NCBI GenBank assembly: GCA_964016885.1
Contig: OZ024740.1
Coordinates: 426,684,001-426,748,000 of the forward strand
Direction: 5' to 3'
Source of the DNA: Eledone cirrhosa
Lineage: Eukaryota
DNA length: 64,000 bases
In this document: in pieces, positions 1-61,839 of the stretch
Numbering within the stretch: the stretch's first letter is position 1
How the letters are laid out: each line of letters starts with the position of its first letter
Made by a program: the position numbers and the translations under genes
The notes under the pieces: generated by a model
Told to the model about the DNA's origin: nothing
The model's input: the letters and a program-made list of their open reading frames with translations, nothing else
Databases searched by the model: none

Positions 1-101
1 ACTTTTTTCAAACTTTACACATGTGTTACTTATAATACTTGAAGTGCAATAGGCTAGTAGAAATTTAACTTTTGATGTTATTTTTTCATGTTCAATTATG
101 T

Positions 102-115
102 AGCATCACGTGACC
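102..115. promoter_or_regulatory. AGCATCACGTGACC E-box motif (TCACGTGA palindrome); three copies per unit (102, 875, and 1129 as CACATG)
   Basis: Motif seen directly at three sites in each unit. Regulatory function is inference. Confidence 0.35.
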
Positions 116-424
116 TTCATTTGAACATGTCTCTCGCTATAGTCAATTGACATAATCACACAATTGGTCGTTAAAGTTGAACAACTTGAATATCGTGCAG
201 GAGGATTTAAACCAAATATGTTTTATAAAAGCAAACTCTCACAATGGAAAATACATAGAAATTGAATCAGTCTAAGAAAATACATATCAAACTTACGATC
301 ATTGTCAAATCTGTTAGTAGGGATAATTCAGTATTAATTTTAACTAACCAGTCAAATCGAATTGGTCAAAGATCTCCGTATGTCATTCACTACATAGATG
401 TATATAACTGTGTGGTTCTCGTGA

Positions 425-497
425 GGGGAATTAGCTCAGATGGTAGAGCGCTCGCTTTGCATGCGAGAGGTACCGGGATCGACGCCCGGATTCTCCA
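425..497 (+). tRNA. tRNA-Ala-TGC: tRNA-Ala(TGC) unit 1
   Basis: Full cloverleaf GGGGAAT/ATTCTCC with G3.U70, D stem GCTC/GAGC, anticodon stem CTCGC/GCGAG, loop TT-TGC-AT, T stem CCGGG/CCCGG, A73, no encoded CCA, TTTT ~25 nt downstream. Confidence 0.97.
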
Positions 498-580
498 AAT
501 GTAGGAGTTATATTACTATATATTTTGATGTTTCTACATTTTACAATTTTCTATTATTGTTGTTGTTTCTGCTGATGAAT

Positions 581-746
581 GTGATGGATTGGCAGTACCT
601 GTAATCATCAGACAACATGCTTTACAGTATAGACTTATGGCCCTTTACGTTCCGAGTTAAAATCGCGCCCATGTCAACTTAAAATAAATTAACAATAATG
701 TACAGGGTATTTCACGGCCTTGTTCCAAAAGTAGAAACAATTATTT
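581..746 (+). mobile_element. Decayed, internally deleted tRNA-derived SINE present once per unit (example: unit 1)
   Basis: Aligns by eye to the free SINE at 62838-63063 (GGATTGRCAGTA..ATGCTTTAYAG..GGCCCTTTA..GAGTTMAAATC..GTYAACTT..AAAATAAA). B box mutated to GAGTTAAAATC. The 3' end (GGCCTTGTTCCAAAAGTAGAAAC) resembles my recollection of octopus SINE tails. Confidence 0.75.
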
Positions 747-866
747 TTGTTGTTGTTGTTGTTGTTGTTGTTGTTGTTGTTGTTGTTGTTCTTCTTCTTC
801 TTCTTCTTCTTCTTCTTCTTCTTCTTCTTCTTCTTCTTCTTCTTCTTCTTCTTCTTCTTCTTCTTC
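747..866 (+). repeat. Compound (GTT)n(CTT)m microsatellite, one per unit, variable length (example: unit 1)
   Basis: Directly visible in every unit; accounts for most unit-length variation. Confidence 0.99.
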
Positions 867-1009
867 ACACCACCAGCATCACGTGACCTACCTGTGAGGA
901 GGGCCGTCAGCAATAGTAATCATAGAACATATAGAATCCGTCCGAGGCCGCCCTTATTATTTACTATATATATATGTATATATATATTGTAGAGAAACAG
1001 ACTCATGTG

Positions 1010-1082
1010 AGTGAATTAGCTCAGATGGTAGAGCGCTCGCTTAGCATGCGAGAGGTACCGGGATCGATGCCCGGATTCTCCA
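1010..1082 (+). pseudogene. tRNA-Ala-AGC: tRNA-Ala(AGC) unit 1, 5' acceptor strand damaged (AGTGAAT), G3.U70 lost
   Basis: GTGAGTGAATTAGC in place of GTGAGGGGAATTAGC. Confidence 0.85.
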
Positions 1083-1736
1083 TGCGTCAAGATTTCTTTT
1101 CAAATATTTTTTTCTTGTTCAAAACTACAGCATCACATGACCTTCTTTTGAGGTTGGCTGTCAGTTGTAATCGATAGAAGTGATAACACAATTGGCCCTT
1201 AAATTCATACAGCCTGAAAATAGCACCAGACTATTTCAACCATATATCTATATATATAAAATATAGGAGGTCTGTTTGTACAAATCCCTAAAACTCCAGA
1301 TGTACTCGACTGACTTTTTTCAAACTTTACACATATGTTACTTATAATACTTGAAGTGCAATAGGCTAGTAGAAATTTAACTTTTGATGTTATTTTTTCA
1401 TGTTCAAATATGTAGCATCACGTGACCTTCATTTGAACATGTCTCTCGCTATAGTCAATTGACATAATCACACAATTGTTCGTTAAAGTTGAACAACTTG
1501 AATATCGTGCAGGAGGATTTAAACCAAATATGTTTTATAAAAGCAAACTCTCACAATGGAAAATGCATAGAAATTGAATCAGTCTAAGAAAATACATATC
1601 AAACTTACGATCATTGTCAAATCTGTTAGTAGGGAAAATTCAGTATTAATTTTAACTAACCAGTCAAATCGAATTGGTCAAAGATCTCCGTATGTCATTC
1701 ACTATATAGATGTATATAACTGTGTGGTTCTCCTGA

Positions 1737-1809
1737 GGGGAATTAGCTCAGATGGTAGAGCGCTCGCTTTGCATGCGAGAGGTACCGGGATCGACGCCCG
1801 GATTCTCCA
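1737..1809 (+). tRNA. tRNA-Ala-TGC: tRNA-Ala(TGC) unit 2
   Basis: Consensus cloverleaf. Confidence 0.97.
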
Positions 1810-58722: not shown

Positions 58723-58864
58723 CACACCACCAGCATCACGTGACCTACCTGTGAGGAGGGCCGTCAGCAATAGTAATCATAGAACATATAGAATCCGTCG
58801 GGGCCGCCCTTATTATTTACTATATATATATATATATATATTGTAAAGAAACAGACTCATGTGA

Positions 58865-58937
58865 GGGGAATTAGCTCAGATGGTAGAGCGCTCGCTTAGC
58901 ATGCGAGAGGTACCGGGATCGATGCCCGGATTTTCCA
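58865..58937 (+). tRNA. tRNA-Ala-AGC: tRNA-Ala(AGC) unit 45, C69T
   Basis: Ends ATTTTCCA. Confidence 0.9.
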
Positions 58938-59591
58938 TGCGTCAAGATTTCTTTTCAAATATTTTTTTCTTGTTCAAAACTACAGCATCACATGACCTTC
59001 TTTTGAGGTTGGCTGTCAGTTGTAATCGATAGAAGTGATAACACAATTAGCCCTTATATTCATACAGCCTGAAAATAGCACCAGACTATTTCAACCATAT
59101 ATCTATATATATAAAATATAGGAGGTCTGTTTGAACAAATCCCTAAAACTCCAGATGTACTCGACTGACTTTTTTCAAACTTTACACATGTGTTACTTGT
59201 AATACTTGAAGTGCAATAGGCTAGTAGAAATTTAACTTTTGATGTTATTTTTTCATGTTCAAATATGTAGCATCACGTGACCTTCATTTGAACATGTCTC
59301 TCGCTATAGTCAATTGACATAATCACACAATTGGTCGTTAAAGTTGAACAACTTGAATATCGTGCAGGAGGATTTAAACCAAATATGTTTTATAAAAGCA
59401 AACTCTCACAATGGAAAATACATAGAAATTGAATCAGTCTAAGAAAATACATATCAAACTTACGATCATTGTCAAATCTGTTAGTAGGGATAATTGAGTA
59501 TTAATTTTAACTAACCAGTCAAATCGAATTGGTCAAAGATCTCCGTATGTCATTCACTATAAAGATGTATATAACTGTGTGGTTCTCGTGA

Positions 59592-59664
59592 GGGGAATTA
59601 GCTCAGATGGTAGAGCGCTCGCTTTGCATGCGAGAGATACCGGGATCGACGCCCGGATTCTCCA
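59592..59664 (+). tRNA. tRNA-Ala-TGC: tRNA-Ala(TGC) unit 46, G46A
   Basis: Variable loop AGATA. Confidence 0.92.
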
Positions 59665-60175
59665 AATGTAGGAGTTATATTACTATATATTTTGATGTTT
59701 CTACATTTTACAATTTTCTATTATTGTTGTTGTTTTTGCTGTTGAATGTGATGGATTGGCAGTATCTGTAATCATCAGAAAACATGCTTTACAGTATAGA
59801 GTTATGGCCCTTTACGTTCCGAGTTAAAATCGCGCCCATGTCAACTTAAAATAAATGAACAATAATGTACTGGGTATTTCACGGCCTTGTTCCAAAATTA
59901 GAAACAATTTTGTTGTTGTTGTTGTTGTTGTTGTTGTTGTTGTTGTTGTTGTTGTTGTTGTTGTTCTTCTTCTTCTTCTTCTTCTTCTTCTTCTTCTTCT
60001 TCTTCTTCTTCTTCTTCTTCTTCTTCTTCTTCTTCACACCACCAGCATCACGTGACCTACCTGTGAGGAGGGCCGTCAGCAATAGTAATCATAGAACATA
60101 TAGAATCCGTCCGAGGCCGCCCTTATTATTTACTATATATGTATATATATATTGTAGAGAAACAGACTCATGTGA

Positions 60176-60248
60176 GGGGAATTAGCTCAGATGGTAGAGC
60201 GCTCGCTTAGCATGCGAGAGGTACCGGGATCGATGCCAGGATTCTCCA
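60176..60248 (+). tRNA. tRNA-Ala-AGC: tRNA-Ala(AGC) unit 46, C63A
   Basis: 3' T stem CCAGG. Confidence 0.9.
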
Positions 60249-60900
60249 TGCGTCAAGATTTCTTTTCAAATATTTTTTCTTCTTCAAAACTACAGCATCA
60301 CATGACCATCTTTTGAGGTTGGCTGTCTGTTGTAATCGATAGAAGTTGTAACACAATTGTCCCTTAATTCGTACAGCCTGAAAATAGCACCAGACTATTT
60401 CAACCATATATCTATATATATAAAACATAGGAGGTCTGTTTGTGCAAATCCCTAAAACTCCAGATGTACTCGACTGACTTTTTTCAAACTTTACACATAT
60501 GTTACTTATAATACTTGAAGTGCAATAGGCTAGTAGAAATTTAACTTTTGATGTTATTTTTTCATGTTCAAATATGTAGCATCACGTGACCTTCATTTGA
60601 ACATGTCTCTCGCTATAGTCAATTGACATAATCACACAATTGGTCGTTAAAGTTGAACAACTTGAATATCGTGCAGGAGGATTTAAACCAAATATGTTTT
60701 ATAAAAGCAAACTCTCACAATGGAAAATACATAGAAATTGAATCAGTCTAAGAAAATACATATCAAACTTACGATCATTGTCAAATCTGTTAGTAGGGAT
60801 AATTGAGTATTAATTTTAACTAACCAGTCAAATCGAATTGGTCAAAGATCTCCGTATGTCATTCACTATATAGATGTATATAACTGTGTGGTTCTCGTGA

Positions 60901-60973
60901 GGGGAATTATCTCAGATGGTAGAGCGCTCGCTTTGCATGCGAGAGGTACCGGGATCAACGCCCGGATTCTCCA
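60901..60973 (+). tRNA. tRNA-Ala-TGC: tRNA-Ala(TGC) unit 47, G10T and A57
   Basis: GGGGAATTATCTCAG. Confidence 0.8.
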
Positions 60974-61455
60974 AATGTAGGAGTTATATTACTATATATT
61001 TTGATGTTTCTACTTTTTACAATTTTCTATTATTGTTGTTGTTTCTGCTGTTGAATGTGATGGATTGGCAGTACCTGTAATCATCAGACAACATGCTTTA
61101 CAGTATAGAGTTATGGCCCTTTACGTTCCGAGTTAAAATCGCGCCCATGTCAACTTAAAATAAATTAACAATAACGTACAGGGTATTTCACGGCCTTGTT
61201 ACAAAAGTAGAAACAATTATTTTTGTTTTTGTTGTTGTTGTTGTTGTTGTTCTTCTTCTTCTTCTTCTTCTTCTTCTTCTTCTTCTCCTCCTTCTTCTTC
61301 TTCTTCTTCTTCTTCACACCAGCAACATCACGTGACCTACCTGTGAGGAGGTCCGACAGTAATAGTAATTATAGAATATATAGAAGCCGTCCGTGGCCGC
61401 CCTTATTATTTACTAACTATGTATATATATATTGTAGAGAAACAGACTTATCTGA

Positions 61456-61528
61456 GGGGAATTAGCTCAGATGGTAGAGCGCTCGCTTAGCATGCGAGAG
61501 GTACCGGGATCGACGCCCGGATTCTCCA
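61456..61528 (+). tRNA. tRNA-Ala-AGC: Terminal tRNA-Ala(AGC), chimeric: AGC anticodon with TGC-type C59 and TGC-type 3' flank
   Basis: CTTAGCAT...ATCGACGCCCGGATTCTCCA then AATGTAGGAGTTATATT; TTTT at ~61547. Confidence 0.95.
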
Positions 61529-61839
61529 AATGTAGGAGTTATATTGTTTTGACGAATTTTGTTGCGTTGAAACTATGTTCCTTTGTGCCAATGGAGTTTG
61601 GGCGTTTTGTCGCTTACAAGATTGGGGAACAATGTTAAAAATTACTAGTGTCAATATATAGCATTTTATATCAATATAACATTTAATGCATATATCCCAG
61701 GATAGACTTTGTCCAGTGCCTATTTTTGGTAATAACATAAAACAATTGAGAGATCTAAAACCAAATGTCTGACTCATCAGGGATGCCGGAATATTCAAAT
61801 ACAATAACATGCAGTTGTTCAGCCTGTTAGACATAGTAG

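Follow-up and report, generated by a model that had tools for sequence, protein, structure and literature searches.

A macrosatellite of alternating alanine tRNA genes and further isotype-specific tRNA arrays in the cephalopod Eledone cirrhosa

We analysed a stretch of 64,000 nt from the genome of Eledone cirrhosa (assembly GCA_964016885.1, 3.0 Gb; contig OZ024740.1, here called C1; C1:426,684,001–426,748,000). This stretch, 'the window', is occupied for most of its length by a head-to-tail array in which tRNA-Ala(TGC) and tRNA-Ala(AGC) genes alternate on one strand. We consider this array, with a probability of about 0.6, to be a housekeeping tRNA macrosatellite which expands and contracts by in-register unequal exchange, in which RNA polymerase III (Pol III) transcribes some copies and in which selection acts on the total output of the genes only. 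Arrays of similar or larger size were found in the same genome for other amino acids.

RESULTS

Anatomy of the array

In the window ARAGORN (default score) called 93 tRNA-Ala genes; a 94th, a degenerate AGC gene at position 38022, was added by BLAST and an ungapped scan. There were 47 TGC and 47 AGC anticodons, all genes were on the forward strand and the alternation held in 94 of 94 genes. These figures confirm what had been noted earlier from the letters of the window (the sequence-only reading): 47 head-to-tail units with at least 94 alanine tRNA genes in strict alternation. The same reading had the array running past the left edge of the window, and indeed 15 further genes were found there, with the left end at C1:426,674,729 (9.3 kb outside the window). 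The right end is at window positions 61,528–61,545. In total the array (array A) has 109 genes (55 AGC and 54 TGC) in ∼55 units, with 54 full periods.

The unit is ∼1.28 kb long with 37% GC. In the window, the TGC-to-TGC period has a median of 1282 bp (range 1232–2457 bp). The AGC-to-TGC distance between gene starts is near-constant (725–727 bp), while a (TTG)n(TTC)n tract of differing length spreads the TGC-to-AGC distance over 507–1731 bp. This tract is the variable trinucleotide tract that the sequence-only reading had placed between the two genes; it lies in the TGC-to-AGC spacer, and in one unit it is a pure (TCG)424.

An orphan AGC–TGC pair is located 6.6 kb to the left of array A, severed from it by a 6-kb long interspersed nuclear element (LINE); still further out lies what is left of an Ala(TGC) gene, decayed and in inverted orientation.

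An assembly artefact as the source of array A was ruled out by the lack of any N in the sequence, by the private as well as shared variants of the units and by the presence of the spacer in contigs of run X1 (possibly the source sample), where it was seen at 99–100% identity. The depth of the X1 spacer contigs was 146–275 versus 4.7–9.2 for four diverged or short contigs, values which fit many copies but do not amount to a copy number. In runs X4 and X5, which carry other organism labels, we saw spacer pieces of ∼97% identity; these point to a related spacer and do not imply an array. Run X6 gave no such pieces.

Gene bodies and transcription signals

Positions 34 and 59 are the sole differences between the commonest TGC form and the commonest AGC form, each of which folds into a cloverleaf with –29.2 kcal/mol. 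The G3:U70 pair is present in 92 of the 94 window genes. All 21 stem pairs are intact in 65 of the 94, unequally divided between TGC (39 of 47) and AGC genes (26 of 47). The substitution C63A, which breaks the T-stem, was observed in 16 of 55 AGC copies of array A and in 12 of 37 AGC copies of a second array (array B, see below). On the other hand, positions 33–37 of the anticodon loop are unchanged in both genes in 91 of 91 units. The invariance of the anticodon in all 91 units for each gene also argued against a relic of a tRNA-derived short interspersed nuclear element (SINE) or satellite; genuine SINE heads in the same genome, in contrast, have scattered anticodons.

Each of the two genes is followed by a T4 run within 14–25 nt in 91 of 91 units; the first such run begins 14 nt downstream of the AGC gene in 90 of 91 units and 25 nt downstream of the TGC gene in 91 of 91. 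Upstream of the AGC gene, its 5′ flank has a CATCACGTGA motif together with a TATA-like, AT-rich stretch at ∼20–45 nt; a TATA-like stretch ∼20–35 nt upstream was found for the TGC gene. We take both genes to carry internal A- and B-boxes, assigned from the sequence against the known consensus. With internal boxes, an upstream AT-rich element and a T4 run of its own, each gene would be a separate Pol III unit, and some of the copies would be transcribed.

A signature of methylation was looked for in the array units, and neither CpG depletion nor an excess of CpG transitions was seen; the observed-to-expected CpG ratio was 0.97 in the array versus 0.45 and 0.80 in the flanks. The CpG signal is a weak guide where methylation is mosaic.

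Turnover and variation among units

Over 1,160 aligned columns the mean number of pairwise differences between units was 25 within array A, 23 within array B and 26 between A and B, with a mean unit difference of ∼2.2%. Identical unit pairs were observed at lags 2–5, including three consecutive pairs at lag 4; such pairs evidently mark recent multi-unit duplications. In a four-combination test all four combinations were present in 550 of 703 pairs of common sites, hence variants are heavily shuffled and the units are mosaics of them. We counted variable sites in the AGC gene (21 of 73), the TGC gene (12 of 73) and the spacer (203 of 1014; Fisher p = 0.10 and 0.54 for the two genes). Variability is no lower in the gene bodies than in the spacers, and no per-copy constraint is visible. 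It is in the nature of in-register unequal exchange that it would preserve the 1:1 order of the two genes without selection; what selection there is would act on the total output of the family, with neither the individual copy nor the 1:1 ratio as its target.

A second array and a 220-kb repeated block

Array B, 162 kb downstream of array A (C1:426,907,512–426,958,129), has 75 genes (37 AGC and 38 TGC) and an orphan pair. The two arrays belong to two copies of a 220-kb block: block 1 (C1:426,586,730–426,806,367) is directly repeated from the first base after a gap of 200 N, and both blocks span 426,586,730–426,991,455. Block 1 terminates inside a 74-bp satellite (442 copies, 33 kb, C1:426,773,633–426,806,367), while block 2 reads through this satellite (70 copies). 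Between the blocks, anchored segments without gaps, 105 kb in all, showed a mismatch of 0.15%; among 15 long alignments the seven cleanest had 0.14–0.5%. Satellites are of unequal length in the two blocks, which further differ in one LINE and in the length of a 45-bp minisatellite.

A gap between near-identical adjacent copies, as observed here, is among the listed marks of false duplication (PMC9516828). Because the repeat is bounded by a gap, the satellite is read through in one block and the mismatch is low, arrays A and B are likely to be two alleles. This assignment rests on layout and identity. The locus would then be a variable number tandem repeat (VNTR) with a 109-gene and a 75-gene allele, the number of alanine tRNA genes would differ by ∼30% between haplotypes, and the 220-kb duplicate would be an unpurged haplotype overlap, through which the assembly is likely to overcount alanine tRNA genes.

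The last gene of the array (61456) has an AGC anticodon and an AGC-type 5′ flank, but a T-loop base and a 3′ flank of TGC type. This chimeric gene reads AGC in block 1, and its counterpart in block 2 reads TGC, likely an allelic anticodon switch. First-position changes are the common kind of isoacceptor shift in eukaryotes (PMC3923123).

Share of the alanine tRNA genes of the genome

The two blocks contain 86 of the 96 genome matches to the Ala-TGC motif and 92 of the 107 matches to the Ala-AGC motif. For one haplotype, the share of TGC matches residing in the array is ∼80% (48 of 58 or 38 of 48). All 96 TGC matches have the body type of the AGC genes; probably the TGC gene came from the AGC family through an anticodon change, or the two have been kept alike by conversion.

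Anticodon IGC reads codons GCU, GCC and GCA, while UGC reads GCA and GCG. Genome-wide we found no motif matches for Ala-CGC or Ala-GGC genes and a single match for a separate T54-type Ala family, this being an AGC variant. Since neither CGC or GGC genes nor a separate T54-type family appeared, the AGC and TGC genes of one unit would, within the limits of exact motifs, make the complete alanine decoding set. To this extent the suggestion of the sequence-only reading that one unit could cover most or all of the alanine codon box has held. The array is likely to supply much of the ordinary alanine tRNA of the cell.

A genome search with the Rfam tRNA model, in which 63 of 552,091 candidates were scored (mostly SINE heads), is not a census; it pointed to the Thr array described below. 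We also saw a young family of dispersed tRNA-like repeats, the members of which share their flanks and have scattered anticodons (GGC, GAC, GGT, GTC and AGC); they score as tRNA and would inflate counts of alanine genes.

Other tRNA arrays in the genome

Largely tandem or clustered arrangement was observed for five of the six motif families probed. An array of divergent Glu(TTC)/Asp(GTC) pairs (C3:277,237,224–277,419,320) has a 1.34-kb unit and, by its span, ∼137 units (14 and 41 units at the ends were examined); there are occasional Glu(CTC) copies and, at the right end, an inverted pair. In the Pro array (C3:235.94–236.18 Mb, >200 kb) AGG and TGG genes alternate on opposite strands in units of 1.9 and 5 kb; the Pro motif had 207 matches genome-wide, and in one 10-kb sample of the array 8 of 21 genes were flagged as possible pseudogenes. 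Many Pro copies are decayed, and some read CGG or CAG at fixed positions of the unit. Counting decayed genes, the Thr(AGT) array (C1:243.648–243.700 Mb) gave 87 calls over 62.5 kb; it has higher-order repeats and two TGT copies, and in decayed copies the anticodon is shifted. Lys(CTT) genes form an array of 29 units, each of ∼1.9 kb, and a cluster of 42 genes in which three genes recur as a 3.3-kb repeat (C4:128.68–128.73 Mb and C4:79.56–79.62 Mb). No microsatellite was present in the sampled units of the Glu/Asp, Pro, Thr and Lys arrays. Arrays were seen for Ala, Glu/Asp, Pro, Thr and Lys, with coexisting dispersed copies, and those for the amino acids other than alanine are likely to supply the corresponding tRNAs in the way we suggest for the alanine array.

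DISCUSSION

Alternative explanations

The alanine array could be a mostly silent satellite, amplified neutrally and held in repressive chromatin, with alanine tRNA coming from ∼10 dispersed TGC and 40 dispersed AGC genes. Such a satellite would account for the lack of visible constraint on single copies, for the 29 of 94 window genes with a broken stem pair and for the possible pseudogenes at fixed unit places of the Pro array; intact dispersed TGC genes do exist, e.g. on C15, and clustered tRNA genes of Arabidopsis are silent (PMC7544208). However, the commonest gene forms are canonical, every unit has AT-rich elements and terminators, and the CpG data, weak as they would be under mosaic methylation, show neither depletion nor an excess of transitions; we regard the silent satellite as unlikely. 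A still less probable alternative, in our view very unlikely, is one of the two raised by the sequence-only reading, an alanine-dedicated module selected for a 1:1 dosage of IGC and UGC tRNAs to serve an alanine-rich product in the manner of silk glands. Both alanine anticodons found are in the unit, the alternation is perfect with anticodons invariant in full units, and a small cluster on C15 likewise alternates TGC and AGC. Still, the expansion is not specific to alanine: the other arrays are of similar or larger size (larger for Glu/Asp and Pro). Nor is selection for 1:1 needed, because whole-unit duplication yields the alternation automatically and gene bodies are as variable as spacers. 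With only 26 of 47 AGC genes intact versus 39 of 47 TGC genes the working ratio is not 1:1, and copy number is likely to differ by ∼30% between haplotypes. We give least credence to an array maintained as a chromatin domain or boundary of Pol III and TFIIIC rather than for tRNA (a domain of this kind was the other option of the sequence-only reading), although such a role was proposed for the human tRNA VNTR at 1q23.3 (PMC4041453). The motif CATCAC(G/A)TGA, with three copies per unit and ∼230 genome-wide, nearly all of them at this locus among the matches listed, might seem to favour it; these triplets are better explained as relics of duplicated spacer modules, which are also present in decaying paralogs. 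The flanks of the array are repeat-rich, and a search that was not systematic identified no gene pair to insulate.

Regarding the number of copies only, the second array could be a true and very recent 220-kb tandem segmental duplication, giving one chromosome ∼188 alanine genes at this locus; this would be compatible with the rest of the housekeeping reading. The blocks are within one scaffold, and arrays A and B differ in unit haplotypes, in the style of their short tandem repeats (STRs) and in one private LINE. Yet the junction coincides exactly with an assembly gap that no sequence bridges, block 1 breaks off in the satellite that block 2 crosses, and clean segments are only 0.14–0.5% apart, which makes a true duplication improbable. 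Several observations do weigh against the housekeeping macrosatellite with two alleles. Arrays A and B have no identical unit in common (the nearest ones show 6–25 differences), so that very fast remodelling is needed if they are alleles, and the block mismatch rises to 1.1% over all 15 collinear alignments, satellites included. The one-haplotype share of AGC genes in the array is only ∼55–60%, because C1:309.6 Mb has at least 22 further AGC genes whose variant sequence the motif does not match. The isotype counts for the genome are exact-motif matches for five families and not a genome-wide tRNA scan. The Gly(GCC) motif gave one hit among the 100 of 170 matches listed, which does not point to an array. 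The invariant positions 33–37, few sites as they are, are compatible with some selection.

Relation to known tRNA arrays

Tandem tRNA arrays are a known class, described in human, fish and Entamoeba, and the alanine array adds a cephalopod case. In the literature searched we found no description of cephalopod tRNA arrays; supplements and subscription journals could hold one. A look-up of terms gave no mention of such arrays in the available portions of PMC6962438, PMC13282606, PMC9068888 and bioRxiv 2023.05.16.540928.

The human 1q23.3 VNTR has a GC-rich 7.3-kb unit with a conserved CTCF site and 9–43 units per allele (PMC4041453). The alanine array is like it in having highly similar kilobase-sized units head to tail, with several tRNA genes each and tens of units per allele (∼55 and 38 if the blocks are alleles), and, on the same condition, its copy number would be unstable too; unlike it, the alanine unit is only 1.28 kb long with 37% GC and combines two isoacceptors of one amino acid, and for one anticodon the majority of gene copies lie in the array. 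Entamoeba arrays have 1–5 genes per unit, with mostly complex STRs of 7–12 bp between all arrayed genes, and make up >10% of the genome (PMC2652664). Shared with Entamoeba are the separate tandem arrays for several isotypes and a length-variable repeat in the unit. However, here we have one trinucleotide tract in place of complex STRs, and in the alanine unit only; the arrays are interstitial, make up very little of a 3-Gb genome and coexist with dispersed genes. The likeness to Entamoeba arrays with built-in STRs drawn by the sequence-only reading is therefore weak: the STR stands at a SINE-like tail, and sampled units of the other arrays have no microsatellite.

In teleost fish and Nematostella most tRNA genes are clustered, with clusters of at least 50 genes, fast turnover and mostly heterogeneous gene pairs (PMC2888827); the arrays described here are likewise large and of fast turnover, but they are regular isotype-specific macrosatellites. 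In molluscs, high tRNA counts were reported without clustering for oyster (PMC9679248), and in giant squid such high counts were put down in part to SINEs (PMC6962438). Expansion and contraction of tandem tRNA arrays is described in Drosophila (PMC7919458), and tRNA copy-number variation among mouse strains (PMC13169703). Arabidopsis, where clustered tRNA genes are methylated and silent (PMC7544208), also has extra tandem copies beside dispersed ones; unlike there, we see no CpG decay and the majority of TGC copies are arrayed.

The silk-gland tRNA-Ala clusters of Bombyx and Nephila are small and tissue-specific, have AT-rich upstream elements and serve an alanine-rich product. Clustered alanine genes and upstream AT-rich sequence are found here as well, but other amino acids are also arrayed and no link to an alanine-rich product is apparent.

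It is possible, though we put this forward only tentatively, that most working tRNA genes of this genome reside in a few isotype macrosatellites of fast turnover, resembling Entamoeba in this respect, with a complete alanine set in one of them and a dose differing by about one-third between alleles. If so, tRNA gene dose would segregate in wild populations as a VNTR of large effect. With the blocks as alleles, a single locus would show ∼30% natural variation in the dose of alanine tRNA genes, and the effect of tRNA gene copy number on tRNA level and translation could be tested in a wild animal. Copy-specific variants (G57A, C63A and the flanks) let tRNA-seq separate the output of the array from that of dispersed genes. 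What is worth following, in our opinion, is the wider pattern of macrosatellites for several isotypes, probably with differences in dose between alleles.

ORIGIN OF THE UNIT AND FEATURES OF THE WINDOW

Origin of the unit and its spacers

Older alanine clusters of irregular layout at C1:402.31, 330.37, 315.40 and 402.06 Mb have spacer modules at 70–82% identity to those of the array and intact gene bodies at ∼88–98%. Spacer module A is ∼76–79% identical to the older clusters, and module B is 77–81% identical to gene flanks at C1:402.31 and C1:315.40 Mb. The AGC-to-TGC spacer consists, in this order, of a partial copy of module B, a high-copy repeat fragment and the full copy of module B. The fragment reaches a summed X1 contig depth of 32,743 versus ∼150–290 elsewhere in the spacer, and it had 9 matches in 715 kb. 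No convincing Rfam family was found in the AGC-to-TGC spacer (best E 0.27).

The TGC-to-AGC spacer has a SINE-like repeat, which gave 117 matches in 36 records (715 kb of non-array DNA); in alignment to full copies, its 3′ end leads directly into the TTG tract. The paralog at C1:402.31 Mb, without the SINE-like insert, has a short TTC-rich tract only; the TTC part of the STR matches this tract and the TTG part is the tail of the SINE-like repeat. The STR is therefore likely to be a retroposon tail fused to an old pyrimidine tract and not a designed part of the unit. The probable course of events is that two repeats inserted into an AGC–TGC pair of an older irregular cluster, and that the pair with its insertions was multiplied afterwards as one unit.

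The finished unit was also seen as single copies at C2:178.50 Mb and C2:354.87 Mb (89–94% identity, shorter STRs), possibly orphons or early sources. An older alanine cluster at C1:309.57–309.64 Mb has 23 AGC genes in mixed orientation, and at C15:3.508–3.510 Mb there are five intact alanine genes, TGC and AGC alternating, with flanks unrelated to the array.

Features of the window and neighbouring elements

The features located in the window are listed in Table 1.

Table 1. Coordinates of the array and of representative features in the window
Feature	Positions	Strand	Remarks
Array A, right-hand 47 of ∼55 units	1..61545	+	ARAGORN, BLAST, scan
High-copy dispersed repeat fragment in AGC-to-TGC spacer of every unit (first full unit given)	1266..1385	.	
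Internally deleted SINE-like repeat in TGC-to-AGC spacer	1893..2058	+	3′ end abuts STR
(TTG)n(TTC)n tract, example unit	2059..2163	+	
Spacer module A, 5′ flank of AGC gene, example unit	2166..2303	+	
tRNA-Ala(AGC) gene, example unit	2304..2376	+	
Partial, older copy of spacer module B	2399..2552	+	69% identical to 2684–2835
Spacer module B, 5′ flank of TGC gene, example unit	2684..3029	+	
tRNA-Ala(TGC) gene, example unit	3030..3102	+	
Pure (TCG)424 tract in place of STR, one unit	30201..31473	+	
Degenerate AGC copy, 4 substitutions	38022..38094	+	below ARAGORN default detection
Expanded (TTG)81 tract	58478..58722	+	
Terminal chimeric gene	61456..61528	+	AGC-type 5′ flank, TGC-type 3′ flank

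The (TCG)424 tract is perfect, and a (TCG)57 tract was found in unit 15 of array B (C1:426,925,662); these are CpG-rich expansions that arose within the TTG/TTC microsatellite. To the right of the array there are dispersed SINE-like copies at window positions 62834–63022 and 63470–63610, the former being a fuller relative of the SINE-like repeat embedded in the units. The SINE-like repeats that flank the array are of octopod appearance.

The LINE which cuts off the orphan pair lies within an (ATT)n tract found where the STR begins. A search for homologues of its open reading frame 1 gave none, while a relative with 57% identity is named from Argonauta hians. This 6-kb element has endonuclease and reverse-transcriptase frames and presumably is of L1-Tx1 type; a copy is located at C1:426,611,225–426,617,257. 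All four full-length LINE matches in the region are flanked on both sides by (ATT)n, and, in block 2 only, a related LINE is nested at the tail of one 6-kb element.

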